Shown: positions 45,343-52,671 of the stretch, piece after piece
Layout of the letters: every line of letters begins with the position of its first letter
Position numbering within the stretch: the first letter of the stretch is position 1
Origin: Coraliomargarita sp.
GTDB taxonomy: Bacteria > Verrucomicrobiota > Verrucomicrobiia > Opitutales > Coraliomargaritaceae
Direction of reading: 5' to 3'
NCBI GenBank assembly: GCA_965216325.1
Contig: OZ244160.1
Location: 128,001 to 192,000 of the forward strand
DNA length: 64,000 bases
The notes under the pieces: model-generated
Told to the model about the DNA's origin: nothing
Database searches by the model: none
The model's input: only the letters and a program-made list of their open reading frames with translations
Position numbers and translations under genes: made by a program

Positions 45343-46332
45343 ATGCCTAAGAAACGTAGCAAACAGTCCGAAGACGACGGCCCGAAGGTCAAAACCATCT
45401 ATACCATTAAGCTCGACGACGAGCAGATGGATAAATTGGCGGACTATTTGGAGGAGGGGCATCAGGGGCCATGGTTCCACTATGACGTGGCGTATTCGCT
45501 GTTCGCCTTTAAGGGCGAGAAAGTCAACGTGGTGGGCTATCAGAGTGGCAAGCTGGTGATTTCAGGCAAAAAGACCGAGGACTTTGTTCGCGATATTTTA
45601 GAGGTCGAGATCACCGGCGAGGCGAAGCTCGGCTATGACGAGGTGCACAATCCGGAGTGGTTTGAGCTCCACGCAGGCATGGACGAAAGCGGCAAGGGCG
45701 ACCTGTTTGGCCCGCTGGTGACTGCTTGTGTGATCGCCGATGGCGACATGGTGCGCAAGTGGATGGAACTGGGCGTGGCCGACAGTAAAAAGCTGACCGA
45801 TAACAGCATTCTAAAGCTCGAAAAAGAGATTCGCAAAACCAAGGGCGTGGTGATTAAGACCGCTTTTGCGCGGATGCCGAAGTATAATGAGCTCTACAAC
45901 AAATTTGACCGCAACCTGAACAAGCTGCTGGCGTGGTATCACAGTAAGTCGTTGATCGGTGCGCTGGAGGAGCGCAAGGCGCCTTGGGGACTCTTGGACC
46001 AGTTTACCAAGGAAAAACTGGTCGATGCCTACGTCAAAGATCGCAAAGACTTTAAATTGGTCAGTCGCACCAAGGCGGAGTCCGATCCCGTGGTGGCGGC
46101 TGCTTCGATTGTGGCACGGGCCGTGTATGTGCGCGAAATGAAGCGTCTTTCCGAAGAGGCGGGCGAACCCCTGACCAAGGGCGCCAGCGGCAAGGTGCTG
46201 GCTCAGGCCAAGAAAATCGTCGACGAGCAGGGCGCGGACGCGCTCAAAGGCTTCGCCAAAATGCATTTCAAGACCGCCTACGAGGCGCAGGGCCTTGAGC
46301 CCCCCGCGAAGCCGAGCTGGTATAAAAGGTAG
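45343..46332 (+). CDS. rnhC: Ribonuclease HIII
   Basis: N-terminal TBP-like YQSGKLVISG, GMDESGKGDLFGPL, GVADSKKL, VAAASIVAR, AKMHFKT. Confidence 0.93.
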   Translation: MPKKRSKQSEDDGPKVKTIYTIKLDDEQMDKLADYLEEGHQGPWFHYDVAYSLFAFKGEKVNVVGYQSGKLVISGKKTEDFVRDILEVEITGEAKLGYDEVHNPEWFELHAGMDESGKGDLFGPLVTACVIADGDMVRKWMELGVADSKKLTDNSILKLEKEIRKTKGVVIKTAFARMPKYNELYNKFDRNLNKLLAWYHSKSLIGALEERKAPWGLLDQFTKEKLVDAYVKDRKDFKLVSRTKAESDPVVAAASIVARAVYVREMKRLSEEAGEPLTKGASGKVLAQAKKIVDEQGADALKGFAKMHFKTAYEAQGLEPPAKPSWYKR

Positions 46333-46873
46333 GGGCGTGCCTTGGCGCGCCCGCAGCAGCCAGAGTTGGAGGGCAACGCTCCGTCGTTGCCATTCAGTGT
46401 TGTCTGTCTTCTACTCAGGCGTGGTGGCAATGGCGGACTCCGTGTCTCCGTGGTCGTCCATTCAGTGGGTGGCTCTGTGGTGGTTACCACCCGCTTCGCT
46501 GGAGACACGAAGGCACAGAGAACTGTCGGAGCTGTAAATGAGGTGAAGGGTTCGTGGAGGGCAACGCTCCGTCGTTGCCGTTCAGTGTGGCCAGTCTTCT
46601 ACTCCGGCGTGGTGGCAATGGCGGAGCATTGCCCTCCAGGGGAAACCGCTCAAGGACGCTGAATTCCGCTAAAACGTAGGGCGAAGCACGCACTCCTCGA
46701 GCCAGCTTGGGGTAGCGCAGCCGCGTCTCGCGGCGCACCACGTCGTCTTAAGTTCGCCTTATCGTATGCGGAGCGTGACGCTCCCGCGCTACCTCGGCAT
46801 TAAGTGTATTTTAGCGTTCTTCAGCAGTCATCTTCCGTCCGCCCGATCTCCGATTTCGGTCCTCCGGCCTCCG
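46329..46873. repeat. Composite repeat hotspot: GTAGGGGCG REP, truncated (46367-46437) and complete (46555-46638) GGAG REPINs, 9-mer element halves, GTAGCGCA doublet (46711-46793), heptamer tract
   Basis: Direct sequence matches to repeat families found elsewhere in the window. Confidence 0.85.
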
Positions 46874-48184: not shown

Positions 48185-48778
48185 ATGAACAAAAGAATCG
48201 TTTCAATTTTTGCTGCACTAGTGTGTGGATCCACGCTTTCTGCATCTTTGATCAATTTTCAGTCTGGTTCTCTTACCTCCTTTTTGCAAGCCGATGGTGC
48301 GACCAATCTTGATGGCACGTATACATTTGCATTGGGCACCTTCAGCGAAGCTGCTCTAGCGGGTAGCTCGGACTCTTGGTTCGCTGCTTTTGATGATCAG
48401 ATGGTGGGGACAAATGATTGGCTTACTTCTGGTCCTGCTCCGGTGATCAATACCTTTCAAGGCGACCAATTGATGGTTGATGGCAGTGAGACTAGCAGTG
48501 CTGCTTACATTTTTGGATATAATACGGATCAATCTGAAATTATCATCTTCAGGAATGCTTCATGGGTGTTCCCAACGTTCGATGATCTGGATGTTAGTGC
48601 AGATATTTTCTCGCTTCAAGACGCTAACACAGAAGTTGTCACATCCGCTGGCTCTTGGGTGACATTCAATAATAATCTTCAGATGATTACAGCATCTGCA
48701 GTTCCAGAGCCATCCACCTACGCAGCACTCTCTGGTTTGCTTGCGCTAGGCTACGTGATGGTTCGCCGTCGTAAGTAA
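48185..48778 (+). CDS. PEP-CTERM sorting domain protein
   Basis: Signal peptide; C-terminal VPEPSTYAALSGLLALGYVMVRRRK. Confidence 0.96.
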   Translation: MNKRIVSIFAALVCGSTLSASLINFQSGSLTSFLQADGATNLDGTYTFALGTFSEAALAGSSDSWFAAFDDQMVGTNDWLTSGPAPVINTFQGDQLMVDGSETSSAAYIFGYNTDQSEIIIFRNASWVFPTFDDLDVSADIFSLQDANTEVVTSAGSWVTFNNNLQMITASAVPEPSTYAALSGLLALGYVMVRRRK

Positions 48779-48801
48779 GCGATTTCGCAATTTAACTTTG
48801 C

Positions 48802-48833
48802 AGCCTCGGTTCGTTTCGGACCGAGGCTTTTTT
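48802..48833 (+). terminator. Rho-independent terminator
   Basis: AGCCTCGGT-TCGTTTCGG-ACCGAGGCT followed by a T run. Confidence 0.9.
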
Positions 48834-48907
48834 GTGTCTGGAGCGGGACGCTAGGGTAGGACAGTTTTGCAGGTGCTTTGGGTCTCCTTCGCGAAACTTT
48901 GCAGGCA

Positions 48908-49470
48908 AGTAATAATTAGGGACAGGCTAAATAAAATTGACCTCAATCTGAATTCTGAGCAGTGTTTATCCCATAGCAATGCGCCAACGACGTCTAAAAG
49001 TAGGAGGCAGGGAAGCGATCTATCACTGTATGACTCGGACAGTGAATGGTGAGTTGCTGTTTGAGGATCGTGAGAAGGAGATGCTGCGTAAGATGATGCA
49101 TCAGGTCGCAGACTTTTGTGGAGTTCAGGTGCTCACGTTTTGCATTATGTCGAACCACTTTCACGTGCTGGTTAAGGTGCCCGATGCGCCACAAGTTTCT
49201 GATCAAGAGCTGATGCGGCGTTACAAAGTGCTGTATCCGAAGCCAACGAAATATCAGGCCGAATCTGCGAAGCAGATGGAGTTGCTTCTTTTAGCTGGGG
49301 GTGATGATGCAGAGGTAATTCGATCCAAACTATTGGCTCGAGTAATAATTAGGGACAGGCTAAATAAAATTGACCTCAATCTGAATTCTGAGCAGTGTCT
49401 ATCCCATAGCAATGCGCCAACGACGTCTAAAAGTAGGAGGCAGGGAAGCGATCTATCACTGTATGACTCG
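48908..49470 (+). pseudogene. Two 3'-truncated tandem copies (433 bp and 130 bp) of the 5' end of the Y1 transposase gene
   Basis: Units start AGTAATAATTAGGGACAGGC at 48908, 49341 and 49471; near-identical to 49471-49903. Confidence 0.93.
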
Positions 49471-49541
49471 AGTAATAATTAGGGACAGGCTAAATAAAAT
49501 TGACCTCAATCTGAATTCTGAGCAGTGTTTATCCCATAGCA

Positions 49542-50522
49542 ATGCGCCAACGACGTCTAAAAGTAGGAGGCAGGGAAGCGATCTATCACTGTATGACTCG
49601 GACAGTGAATGGTGAGTTGCTGTTTGAGGATCGTGAGAAGGAGATGCTGCGTAAGATGATGCATCAGGTCGCAGACTTTTGTGGAGTTGAGGTGCTCACG
49701 TTTTGCATTATGTCGAACCACTTTCACGTGCTAGTTAAGGTGCCCGATGCGCCACAAGTTTCTGATCAAGAGCTGATGCGGCGTTACAAAGTGCTGTATC
49801 CGAAGCCAACGAAATATCAGGCCGAATCTGCGAAGCAGATGGAGTTGCTTCTTTTAGCTGGGGGTGATGATGCAGAGGTAATTCGATCCAAACTATTGGC
49901 TCGTATGGCAGATGTTTCTGAGTTTATGAAAGCGCTCAAACAGCGCTTTTCGGTCTGGTATAACCGCAGCCATCGCCGCTACGGGACGCTTTGGGCAGAG
50001 CGCTTTAAGTCGGTGCTGGTTGAGGGCGCGGGCAATGCCCTGCAAACCATTGCTGCCTATATCGATTTGAATTCAGTGCGGGCAGGTTTAGTTGATGATC
50101 CGAAGGACTACCGCTTCTGTGGCTATGCTGAAGCGGTGGCAGGAGTCGCCAGTGCGTGCAATGGACTTAAGCGTATATGGGCCGACCACGGCCGAGACTA
50201 TCTCCACGCACATCGAACGCTTTTATTTGGTAAGGGGGCTAGTCCGTGGACGCATCACGGAAAAGTCATCAATCGGCAGAAAGCCCTCAAGGTATTGGAG
50301 CGAGAGGACGGCGAACTTTCCAAGGCGGCGATACTGCGTTGTCGAATTCGCTACTTCTCAGATGGCGCAATTCTTGGCAGTGCCGAATATGTGCGTGGCT
50401 TCTCGGGTGCATGGCAACTTGAACGTGGGCGCAAGCATCCTCCTAAAGTTAATCAACTGCGCGGTGCTGCTTGGGGCGATCTATCAGTCATTCAAGGACT
50501 GCGGAAGCAGGTGTTTGGTTAG
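49542..50522 (+). CDS. HUH Y1 tyrosine transposase (RAYT-like, long form)
   Basis: YHCMTR, MSNHFHVLV (HUH), LWAERFKS, YIDLNSVRAG (catalytic Tyr), DPKDYRF. Confidence 0.92.
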   Translation: MRQRRLKVGGREAIYHCMTRTVNGELLFEDREKEMLRKMMHQVADFCGVEVLTFCIMSNHFHVLVKVPDAPQVSDQELMRRYKVLYPKPTKYQAESAKQMELLLLAGGDDAEVIRSKLLARMADVSEFMKALKQRFSVWYNRSHRRYGTLWAERFKSVLVEGAGNALQTIAAYIDLNSVRAGLVDDPKDYRFCGYAEAVAGVASACNGLKRIWADHGRDYLHAHRTLLFGKGASPWTHHGKVINRQKALKVLEREDGELSKAAILRCRIRYFSDGAILGSAEYVRGFSGAWQLERGRKHPPKVNQLRGAAWGDLSVIQGLRKQVFG

Positions 50523-50574
50523 CGCGTTGTTTTAGGATCGTCCTCGATCATCCTGGTCTTGTAGGCTCACGCTT

Positions 50575-51105
50575 ATGAAATTTAGCCAACTGCCCCGTCT
50601 TGTCTTTGCCTGTTCACTCGCGTTAGCTGCGCTTCAGTTCAGTGGCTGTCTTCAGTCCTGTCAGAATATGAGTTATGATGACCGTATGATTGTTGGTGAA
50701 AGTGCGTTCATCCACATTGAGGAAATTGATCATGCTCTGGAAGCGCGCATTGATACGGGGGCGCGCACGACGTCGATTCACGCGCTTGATATGAAGATTG
50801 AGAACGATGCCGGTGATTATAAGGAGAATGTCGGCAAGCAGATCAGCTACACGATTGTAGATGCGGATGGAAAGCGTTTCCCGATGACCGGTGTGATCGG
50901 TGGCTACACGGTGGTGCGTAACGCGCAAGGCACCGAGACTCGCTATCATGTGCCCATGACTTTGACCTGGCAGGGCGTGAGTAAGCCAATCGAAGTGAAC
51001 CTTCGCGACCGCTCGGCGATGACTTACAAGCTGTTGATTGGTCGCGACTGGTTGGCGGACGATTTCCTGGTCAATGTCGACATTGCCGAAGAGCAACCGG
51101 AATAA
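50575..51105 (+). CDS. Retropepsin-like putative protease (RimB-like / ATP-dependent zinc protease family), probably exported
   Basis: ARIDTGARTTSIHA, LRDRSAMTYKLLIGRDWL; signal/lipobox-like N-terminus. Confidence 0.85.
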   Translation: MKFSQLPRLVFACSLALAALQFSGCLQSCQNMSYDDRMIVGESAFIHIEEIDHALEARIDTGARTTSIHALDMKIENDAGDYKENVGKQISYTIVDADGKRFPMTGVIGGYTVVRNAQGTETRYHVPMTLTWQGVSKPIEVNLRDRSAMTYKLLIGRDWLADDFLVNVDIAEEQPE

Positions 51106-51108
51106 AAT

Positions 51109-51191
51109 TGGAGGGCAACGCTCCGTCGTTGCCGTTCAGTGTTGTCAGTGTTCTGTTCTGGCGTGGTGGCAATGACGGAGCATTGCCCTCC
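51109..51191. repeat. REP doublet upstream of the RAYT
   Basis: TGGAGGGCAACGCTCCGTCGTTGCC-34nt-GGCAATGACGGAGCATTGCCCTCC. Confidence 0.95.
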
Positions 51192-51244
51192 GGCTCGCCG
51201 CGAGGTGAAATGGAATAACATAGGAGCATTGCTCACCAAATGAT

Positions 51245-51718
51245 ATGGAATATGAGGACCGAAAGCATCCGGCTAGGCATCCAGTGATCCGGAATGGAAA
51301 TCGCTCAGAGATTTTATTTGTCACGGTCTGCGCCCATCAAAGGAAGCGCATTCTAGCCACACCGCTGGTGCATGACTTACTGGTTGCTGCTTGGGAGAGC
51401 GCGGATCATTGGTTGGTCGGCAGGTATGTCATTTTGCCTGATCACATTCATTTGTTTTGCGCGCCTGCTCAGGTCGATTATTTGTCGGTTCAGCGTTGGA
51501 TTGCTTTCTGGAAGTCGTCCGTTTCAAAGGCGTGGCCGAACCAGGATGCCAAGCCAATTTGGCAAATTGATGGTTGGGATCGTCAGCTGCGCAAAGGAGA
51601 TAGCTACAGTCAGAAATGGGCCTATGTGAGGAACAATCCAGTGCGCCATGGGCTAGTGGATGATCCGGAGGATTGGCCGTATCAAGGAGAGTTGAATCAA
51701 TTTTTGTGGCATGATTAA
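51245..51718 (+). CDS. REP-associated tyrosine transposase (RAYT / TnpA-REP)
   Basis: LFVTVC, YVILPDHIHL (HUH), IWQ..WDR, YVRNNPVRHGLV, DWPY; flanked by REP doublets on both sides. Confidence 0.95.
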   Translation: MEYEDRKHPARHPVIRNGNRSEILFVTVCAHQRKRILATPLVHDLLVAAWESADHWLVGRYVILPDHIHLFCAPAQVDYLSVQRWIAFWKSSVSKAWPNQDAKPIWQIDGWDRQLRKGDSYSQKWAYVRNNPVRHGLVDDPEDWPYQGELNQFLWHD

Positions 51719-52587
51719 TGGAGGGCAACGCTCCGCCGTTGCCGTGCAGTGTTGTCAGTCTTCTGTTCAGGCGTGGTGGCAATGGCGGAGCATTGCCCTC
51801 CAGCTAGCAGTGGCGTGTTGTGTGTGATTGGAGGGCAACGCTCCGCCGTTGCCGTGCAGTGTTGTCGGCCTTCTGCTCAGGCGTGGTGGCAATGACGGAG
51901 CATTGCCCTCCAGCTAGCAGTGGCGTGTTGTGTATGATTGGAGGGCAACGCTCCGCCGTTGCCGTGCAGTGTTGTCGGTCTTCTGCTCAGGCGTGGTGGC
52001 AATGGCGGAGCATTGCCCTCCAGCTAGCAGTGGCGTGTTGTGTATGATTGGAGTGCAACGCTCCGCCGTTGCCGTGCAGTGTTGTCAGTCTTCTGTTCAG
52101 GCGTGGTGGCAATGGCGGAGCATTGCCCTCCAGCTAGCAGTGGCGTGTTGTGTGTGATTGGAGGGCAACGCTCCGCCGTTGCCGTGCAGTGTTGTCGGCC
52201 TTCTGCTCAGGCGTGGTGGCAATGACGGAGCATTGCCCTCCAGCTAGCAGTGGCGTGTTGTGTATGATTGGAGGGCAACGCTCCGCCGTTGCCGTGCAGT
52301 GTTGTCAGTCTTCTGTTCAGGCGTGGTGGCAATGGCGGAGCATTGCCCTCCAGCTAGCAGTGGCGTGTTGTGTATGATTGGAGTGCAACGCTCCGCCGTT
52401 GCCGTGCAGTGTTGTCGGCCTTCTGCTCAGGCGTGGTGGCAATGACGGAGCATTGCCCTCCAGCTTGCAGTGGCGTGTTGTGTGTGATTGGAGTGCAACG
52501 CTCCGCCGTTGCCGTGCAGTGTTGTCAGTTTTCTGTTCAGGCGTGGTGGCAATGACGGAGCATTGCCCTTCAGCTTGCAGTGACGTG
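51719..52587. repeat. Tandem array of 8 x 110 bp REPIN/BIME units
   Basis: Units start at 51719, 51829, 51939, 52049, 52159, 52269, 52379 and 52489; each is 25 nt REP + 34 nt linker + inverted 25 nt REP + 26 nt linker. Confidence 0.97.
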
Positions 52588-52671
52588 AAGTTGAATGACG
52601 TGGGGCCTTTGCCCTCCAGTTTCGTGGAATGCACACTTGTCATTCGGCGAGGCTTGGCGCTTCATAGCCCT

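Follow-up and report, generated by a model that had tools for sequence, protein, structure and literature searches.

Tandem restarts at one fixed base in front of a long Y1 HUH transposase gene of Coraliomargarita and its relatives

In Y1 HUH enzymes in general, the tyrosine stays on the 5′ phosphate, and the known Y1 enzymes, to our knowledge, read hairpins. Here we describe a gene for a long enzyme of this class, preceded by two truncated copies of its own 5′ part that restart at exactly the same base as the intact copy. The locus lies in a 64,000-nucleotide stretch of Coraliomargarita sp. (Verrucomicrobiota, Opitutales; GenBank assembly GCA_965216325.1, contig OZ244160.1, positions 128,001 to 192,000 of the forward strand), which as a whole is called the window below and supplies the coordinates unless stated otherwise. 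For the transposase of IS608, the available part of one account (PMC3597680) describes a left end that is held by a 5′-phosphotyrosine and attacked by a 3′-OH, and a left cleavage site that a linker of fixed length, 15-19 nt, separates from the recognition element lying 3′ of it. The available part of a classification of TnpAY1 proteins (Quentin et al., 2018; PMC6006769) describes a subclass 2.3 from Chromatiales and Alteromonadales with a median length of 325 aa, an HuH-Y distance of about 110, several diverged copies per genome and the signature NHYH / WE / YVDLNP; for subclasses 2.1 and 2.3, the same part identifies no associated DNA structure and gives the function as unknown. As far as that part of the classification goes, these two subclasses appear to be the nearest described relatives of the enzyme treated here.

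The gene is encoded on the + strand at 49542..50522 (326 aa), with H60/H62 at 49719-49727 and Tyr173 at 50058-50060. Judged by sequence and predicted fold, its product is a Y1 HUH enzyme, as a first-pass annotation made from the letters alone had already proposed. The protein matched the Pfam family Y1_Tnp (PF01797) with 58.3 bits against a cut-off of 23 (E 1e-15), and this was the only family found by Pfam in it, while the NCBIfam models for RAYT (REP-associated tyrosine transposase; REP, repetitive extragenic palindrome) and for IS200 scored 65.8 and 32 bits, under their cut-offs of 80 and 55, respectively. No variation at residues N59-H60-F61-H62 and Y173 was found among 24 sequences with identities as low as 41%, the spacing from HuH to Y amounts to 113, and the tyrosine motif is of the Y---NP type. 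The AlphaFold model (predicted local distance difference test, pLDDT, 79.6; predicted template modeling score, pTM, 0.82) had its best fold match in 4er8 (TnpA-REP; E 2.4e-5, template modeling score 0.72 of the target), followed by the ISDra2 and IS608 transposases (top list 4er8, 2xma, 2xm3 and 2vic; E 2e-5 to 1e-3). By sequence, no match in the PDB was better than E 0.7. The genome holds four copies, the window gene and three paralogs, with 84-86% amino acid identity. Among 8000 candidates scored, more than 7000 proteins matched at E up to 1e-10, all of them named just 'transposase', and a plasmid collection gave 2 matches only, both distant.

With the TnpA transposases of the IS200/IS605 family (IS608, ISDra2), the enzyme shares the Y1 HUH fold and the single catalytic Tyr. 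The restart point likewise corresponds to an IS608-like placement of the left cleavage site 5′ of a recognition element at a fixed distance, 15-19 nt there (available part of PMC3597680) and about 10 nt here. Unlike those systems, the locus has no subterminal hairpins, no tnpB and no target tetranucleotide that was found; the motif is Y---NP rather than Y---Q (Table 1 of PMC6006769, within the part available); the protein is enlarged by an insert of about 50 aa and by a further stretch of about 130 aa at its C-terminus; and the locus is syntenic between species, as the comparison of the window with the sister species G002 showed. The RAYT/TnpA-REP proteins resemble it in providing the best structural match (4er8), in the class-2 Y---NP motif and in vertical persistence at a locus, but here there are no flanking REP hairpins, the protein is twice as long and below the NCBIfam cut-off, and it occurs in 4 copies in this genome with at least 27 matches elsewhere. 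The agreement with TnpAY1 subclass 2.3, as far as the available part of its description goes, extends to the length (326 aa), the spacing (113), the four diverged copies and the absence of an REP-like structure; the signature is different, reading NHFH / WA / YIDLN(P/S). Proteins from Photobacterium and Aeromonas that bear the 2.3 signature were 28-30% identical to the enzyme. Upstream of one such Photobacterium gene (318 aa; locus L154, 1130-1320), several GGACAG/CTGTCC copies were seen 150-330 nt away, a hint that a GGACAG-type core may occur both here and in the proteobacterial subclass.

Comparison of the window sequence with itself revealed direct repeats starting at 48908, 49341 and 49471, all on the + strand. 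Unit 1 (48908..49340) is a 433-bp 3′-truncated copy holding the start segment, a conserved box, TTGAC and codons 1-120 including the HUH motif, unit 2 (49341..49470) is a 130-bp 3′-truncated copy, and both end in CTCG. Unit 3 (49471..50522) is the intact element of 1052 bp, running from the restart point, designated S, to the stop codon, and this span is also the unit of paralogy within the genome. Beyond the point at which unit 2 ends, the intact copy continues with GACAG (49601-49605). The conserved box AGGGACAGGC of unit 3 (49481..49490) lies 10 nt 3′ of S, and its copies in units 1 and 2 occupy 48918-48927 and 49351-49360. TTGACC, a -35-like hexamer that may be a promoter element, follows at 49500..49505; no full sigma-70 consensus promoter was found in the unit. 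Unit 1 differs from unit 3 at two positions (49126/49689, 49170/49733) and unit 2 at one (49399/49529), and the 19-mer at the unit start occurs at only 3 places in the 3.06-Mb genome, all in this locus.

The first-pass annotation had reported three units beginning at one base, the third intact, with both truncations falling after CTCG (49337-40 and 49467-70), the sole two such tetramers in the first 433 nt, and all of this was reproduced. The two CTCGs stand at unit positions 127 and 430, and further ones occur at 50402, inside the gene, a copy absent from the annotation, and at 50543. Its observation that the native left flank has no microhomology with CTCG also stood, as the flank ends in GGCA and has no base in common with it. 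Both junctions read CTCG followed by AG, and CTCGAG is a palindrome; palindromic hexamers were rejected as a general feature of the restart point (3/39 sites vs 2.35 in shuffles, P 0.41).

The assembly was checked by comparing window 48600-50200 with the Logan contigs of public sequencing runs. No RNA run was listed among those carrying the locus. Runs X1-X4 may represent the source strain, and the comparison with them is a test of the assembly and not of an independent isolate. In run X2, the depth was 392 in the flank, 991 in the 130-nt unit, 671 in the part common to units 1 and 3, and 376 in the unique part of the gene. Unitigs of 56 nt were present across junction 1 (49311-49366, depth 383) and junction 2 (49441-49496, depth 388); with 30 + 26 letters on the two sides they are just below the 31-letter bridging rule, and every 31-mer in them spans the junction. 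The 3:2:1 depth ladder together with the single-copy junction unitigs indicates that both junctions were present in every cell of X2. Junction 2 only was found in the X1 contigs. The first-pass annotation had argued against an assembly echo from single-nucleotide polymorphisms (SNPs) between the copies; its conclusion survived through the depth ladder, which makes the SNP argument dispensable; that argument is weak, since the SNPs were unconfirmed in the run contigs (X2 has no other letters at these positions, and X1 has the unit-1 letter at 49689). The triple restart preceding the gene is thus real.

The restart point proved to be a fixed, base-precise end, as had been supposed, and it was reused independently at all four paralogs, at boxes without a gene and in relatives. 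At 4/4 paralogs of this genome, the start of the right-hand copies maps to one and the same homologous position, ATG-71 to -74. S is 10 nt 5′ of the box AGGGACAGGC, about 71 nt before the ATG. Homology between paralogs (pairs B/D and C/D) starts at S+0..+8 and ends no more than 6 nt from the stop codon, and since paralogy runs from S to the stop codon, S is a true end of an element of about 1.05 kb. Sequence conservation begins about 8 nt before the box, which places S at the edge of the conserved module. The annotation had expected the repeats to reveal both the end and the target of a poorly characterised HUH element; the left end was recovered, as the left limit of paralogy, whereas a target site was not.

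Throughout the genome, the box occurred 21 times on the + strand and twice on the - strand, where 3.8 copies would be expected on either. Its copies are distributed over the gene loci, 4 gene-less clusters (10 copies) and 3 isolated sites. The gene-less arrays, at genome positions 440.6, 463.2, 464.6-465.1 and 468.3-468.6 kb (contig coordinates 440591-440673, 463166-463191, 464620-465088 and 468255-468604; loci L093 and L094), are intergenic, lie upstream of PEP-CTERM genes and show the same 17-18-nt units with the same start. Because these clusters show the same stutter, the scar goes with the box and not only with the gene. In loci with a GGGAC-type box, the start lay 9-11 nt 5′ of the box in 17/19 and exactly 10 nt, within the range of ambiguity, in 13, and in 40/60 copies TTGAC stood 18-21 nt downstream of the box's first G.

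Relatives were sampled as 80 loci from GTDB genomes (Opitutales, Puniceicoccaceae, Lentimonas, Coraliomargarita and others) and as loci from whole-genome searches. An exact repeat whose right copy started at ATG-70..-61 was present in 17/76 loci, against a background of 0-3 loci per 10-nt bin. A strict parser, which demanded at least one clean unit abutting a start in ATG-105..-40, was then applied to the 129 genome copies left from 151 after removal of identical copies and of those with less than 200 nt upstream. It found 24/129, while six equally wide control windows in the coding region gave 0, 0, 1, 0, 0 and 1. In an independent metagenome set of 60 loci kept from 79 anchored ones, it found 17/60 and none in each of four control windows, so that both sets together show restarts in 41/189 relatives. 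These strict counts are lower bounds because the parser misses arrays with diverged starts, and arrays visible by eye were missed in, for example, L002, L005, L011, L049, L061, L071, L072 and L097. Homologs at 40-55% protein identity in other families of the order had the same pattern. The 5′ leader of L049 (2435-2486) contains a tandem duplication of 26 nt that begins elsewhere than at the restart point, which indicates that other kinds of duplication also occur there.

The arrays were also polymorphic among close relatives. At the orthologous locus, metagenome runs X5 and X8, from ocean strains of two studies whose gene is about 99% identical, have one junction, placed after window position 49005. 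The resulting unit measures 98 nt, its 10-nt start segment is not that of the window, and in X5 the depths stand at 2:1; among the contigs listed, none of either run covered the left flank (48600-48907). In the sister species G002, where the gene is 74% identical and has the same PEP-CTERM and Zn-protease neighbours, the unit comprises the whole gene (1052 nt) and is joined to S 1-4 nt after the stop codon. Twelve metagenomic alleles, which share at least 95% identity in the first 600 nt of coding sequence, had 10 different 5′ arrangements, mostly with one common left flank. Scarring is therefore recurrent and ongoing at the same locus. Contig ends near the 5′ end of the gene were rejected as a sign of instability, since, in this multi-copy gene, contig breaks occur at the 3′ end too. 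At least 10 N-terminal-only gene fragments (residues about 2-4 through 142-213) were noted in genome G051 and may be long truncated units; in G081, three copies all begin at residue 72-73.

Altogether, 54 distinct units could be measured. Their lengths peak at 12-13 nt and at 17-18 nt, with a tail of 24, 25, 26 and so on up to 130, 433 and 1052 nt. The unit ends fell between CA and GG inside the box in 11/54, directly 5′ of (G)(G)GAC in 14/54 and elsewhere in 29/54. Microhomology was 0 nt at 24/55 junctions and at least 2 nt at 18/55, against 10.4 expected (P 0.007). In the window, the 433-bp junction 1 is blunt and junction 2 has a microhomology of 4 nt, and the claim of the first-pass annotation that slippage could be excluded accordingly held for the first junction but not for the second, where the microhomology is with the new CTCG-S site.

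The same annotation had taken CTCG for the target, a guide-specified site of the IS200/IS605 kind to any downstream copy of which the fixed end would be joined. What favours this is that both window junctions follow CTCG, the only two in the first 433 nt; given the first junction, the chance that a second random end falls after the same tetramer is 1/130 to 2/433. Among all units, however, the CTCG ends number 2/54, both from this locus, the other three paralogs end in GACA, TGCT, GACG(G) and AAAA(GG), and the native flank reads GGCA. Tabulation of the four upstream nucleotides across the genome and relatives yielded no shared tetranucleotide, and the hairpin-plus-guide architecture is absent. 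There are also simpler causes: after the 433-bp event the restart site itself was preceded by CTCG, and the 130-bp segment is for this reason flanked by CTCG on both sides, while the 130-bp unit ends at a place that reads CTCG directly followed by GACAG. The second CTCG is thus explained by microhomology with junction 1, by the adjacent GACAG, or by both, with no need for a guide, and we regard a guide-specified CTCG as very improbable.

We consider it probable that the Y1 HUH enzyme cuts at S and that the protein-linked left end is then joined to a downstream 3′-OH. The S-to-stop stretch of 1.05 kb would be an element resembling an insertion sequence (IS) and carrying only the long Y1 HUH gene. 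The recognition site of its enzyme would be the linear box AGGGACAGGC(TAA), which precedes the -35-like TTGAC of the enzyme's own gene, and we infer that this enzyme itself makes the cut, on the sense strand, about 10 nt 5′ of the box. Tyr173 would become bound to the 5′ phosphate of the first base of the unit, and the flank would keep a free 3′-OH. Mostly, the cut would just be resealed. Sometimes a polymerase would first extend the 3′-OH, re-copying the start of the element and displacing the protein-linked strand, before the extended end is joined to the protein-linked 5′ end; at the next replication, one daughter would receive a tandem copy that starts exactly at S and ends where synthesis had reached. 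Nicking, extension and resealing in this manner would explain why the start is fixed and the ends are variable, and why the units are nested and ordered head to tail. In the window, the 433-bp event would have come first and the 130-bp event later, at the new CTCG-S site. The pile-ups of unit ends at the box edge and within the box (12-13 and 17-18 nt from S) and before GACAG look-alikes would reflect bound protein that halts the polymerase, and short microhomology would help the new end to realign at the nick. A base-precise start 5′ of the recognition element and blunt joins are, by analogy, what Y1 chemistry would predict for a cut at S. The variant in which the flank 3′-OH is extended before rejoining is the more doubtful part, which we advance as possible but somewhat less than even, and the scheme as a whole is offered tentatively as the best explanation, with confidence falling just short of an even balance.

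Comparable events are familiar from other HUH enzymes. Rolling-circle Rep proteins and relaxases also nick, attach covalently to the 5′ end, allow extension of the 3′-OH and religate, leaving one endpoint fixed and the other variable, and Michel and Ehrlich reportedly described illegitimate recombination at rolling-circle nick sites in 1986. Those enzymes act at plasmid or phage origins and give circle-deletion products, whereas the locus described here is a chromosomal site with a transposase-like enzyme and yields tandem duplications. One-ended transposition of IS91/ISCR elements likewise has one fixed and one variable end; these elements belong to a different HUH class, Pfam having detected Y1_Tnp alone in the present enzyme, and no flanking host DNA was seen to be carried along here.

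Several results weigh against nicking and extension at S. The non-random unit ends are no less compatible with a second sequence-specific cleavage than with polymerase stalling, and among long units 2/16 end directly 5′ of a GACAG pseudo-box, against 0.05 expected in a post hoc test, the 130-bp unit of the window being one of the two. The approximately 10 nt between S and the box differ among units of one array and among near-identical alleles, which plain copying does not predict. The canonical box was present in only 60/129 copies, and restart arrays were rarer in some genomes, such as G074. No excess folding that would indicate a left-end hairpin was detected in 60 copies (mean z -0.29 on the top and -0.24 on the bottom strand, with z below -2 in 4/60 copies on each strand). 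An orientation toward the lagging strand was tried as a predictor and rejected: judged by GC skew, a rough proxy, 18/31 copies in G074 and G055 were on the locally G-rich strand, which is no bias.

The main rival to nicking, extension and resealing is a two-cut transposase reaction, in which S and a pseudo right end on the same strand are both cleaved and the 3′-OH is joined to the protein-linked S; the product would be a junction of right and left end (RE-LE type) or a mini-circle as in IS608, reinserted at a sister flank-S site to give a tandem partial unit. Such chemistry is documented for IS608 (available part of PMC3597680), and it would suit the clustering of unit ends in or beside the box and before GACAG look-alikes, the G002 full-length unit, joined stop codon to S like an IS dimer or circle junction, and the many N-terminal-only gene fragments in G051. 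It fits poorly with units of 9-18 nt, which are too short for plausible circles, with the 29/54 unit ends that match neither hot spot, and with the lack of a shared tetranucleotide in most arrays. Comparison of the paralogs found no conserved right-end motif beyond the coding sequence, and no reciprocal deletion products were seen, although no search was made for them. On balance, we judge this reaction rather unlikely, though by some way the strongest of the competitors. A still less likely possibility dispenses with an HUH cut altogether and supposes that a box-bound protein, the Y1 enzyme or a regulator, stalls replication forks, with template switching or slippage at the edge of its footprint. 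The excess of microhomology of at least 2 nt (18/55 vs 10.4 expected), the accumulation of unit ends at the box edge and the 4-nt microhomology at window junction 2 all speak for it, yet 24/55 junctions are blunt, including the 433-bp junction of the window, and a footprint edge explains neither a start that is base-precise about 10 nt outside the box across copies 40-55% identical nor the coincidence of this fixed point with the limit of paralogy.

Arrays located directly upstream of the -35-like TTGAC, and gene-less arrays located upstream of PEP-CTERM genes, would also be expected if ordinary slippage and selection had shaped them as iterons that adjust expression, either of this gene or of its PEP-CTERM neighbours. 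In most units, though, the truncation falls within the box, the long units carry broken coding sequence, and 10 array states in 12 near-identical alleles look like mutation rather than conservation, which makes this origin highly improbable. An assembly artefact has the least to recommend it and is considered negligible: the between-unit SNPs lack confirmation in the run contigs and many of the relatives are metagenome assemblies, but the X2 junction unitigs are single-copy with a 3:2:1 depth ladder, the window genome is a single closed-looking contig, and the same pattern appeared in two separate collections, genomes and metagenomes.

The surroundings of the locus were inspected as well. On the left, the terminator hairpin (48802..48828, + strand; a 12-pair stem followed by a T run) of an upstream PEP-CTERM gene (48185-48778) forms with that gene a conserved neighbourhood, which recurs in G002 and in the metagenome cluster. 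The spacer from the terminator to the first unit varies in length, from about 78 nt in the window through about 36 nt in G002 to 6-8 nt in the metagenome cluster; in the window (48840-48907) it holds a degenerate AGGACAG, possibly a decayed older unit. The duplications have created two by-product open reading frames on the + strand, each behind its own copy of the TTGAC region: one of 167 aa (48979..49482), comprising the first ~120 enzyme residues with the HUH motif but without the Tyr and an out-of-frame tail, and one of 67 aa (49412-49615). From its composition, the 167-aa product could act as a truncated competitor. Downstream of the gene, a 5-bp hairpin read by eye (50536..50549, + strand) contains the CTCG at 50543-46 that the first-pass annotation had pointed out; it is present but probably belongs to the flank rather than to the element, because neither the unit of paralogy nor the full-length G002 unit extends to it.

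A separate, true RAYT is encoded 700 bp downstream (51245-51718, 157 aa; NCBIfam REP_Tyr_transpos 89.1 bits vs a cut-off of 80). It is flanked by tandem ~110-nt units with a 25-nt inverted repeat (51104-52640), which are REP-like or resemble bacterial interspersed mosaic elements (BIME), and a second array of this REP/BIME-like kind lies about 5 kb upstream of it (46295-46700). A dispersed ~110-nt palindromic repeat with CCCCTCC/GGAGGGG arms, similar to REPs or to miniature inverted-repeat transposable elements, was found at contig positions 468300-468415 and in at least 40 other places on both strands, one copy being inside a 225-nt unit of the gene-less arrays. Next to the gene-less array of L093, an N-terminal sulfatase fragment (contig 440376-440580) is 91% identical to the start of a gene at 369.5 kb on the other strand; the similarity stops about 10 nt before the box array and marks a rearrangement junction at the element end. 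All gene copies and gene-less arrays of this genome are on the + strand, at 28-606 kb, within the region of rising cumulative GC skew (0 to ~1.05 Mb). The skew then falls to ~1.8 Mb and rises to the end of the contig, which suggests very unequal replichores or a large rearrangement.

In the open-access literature, subscription journals not being covered, no description was found of such arrays, of the box or of the DNA site of this clade. Sequence comparison points to a Y1 HUH element whose left end is marked by a linear box and which, when active, would leave diagnostic restart scars, and the scar probably marks to the base where the enzyme cuts. The scars supply a testable substrate: they specify a linear box, place the cut about 10 nt 5′ of AGGGACAGGC, and predict on which strand it falls and to which of its sides the protein is covalently linked, together with likely secondary sites between CA and GG and just 5′ of GACAG. 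A family that existed only as annotation becomes accessible to a single oligonucleotide cleavage assay, and its Y1 enzyme seems to recognise its site by sequence and not by a hairpin. Wild marine populations are thereby documented to harbour a site-specific source of tandem duplications and of promoter-proximal hypervariability. It is conceivable, if unlikely, that the long Opitutales Y1 enzymes are resident box-guided nickases that re-initiate strand synthesis or transfer at a fixed chromosomal site; with the same reservation, they would work in cis on the promoter of their own gene and in trans on those boxes without a gene that precede PEP-CTERM surface-protein genes. Were this true, the enzymes would constitute a chromosomal, rolling-circle-like maker of hypervariable arrays and of a mutable 10-nt segment at defined promoters, and the arrays would possibly serve as an expression switch.

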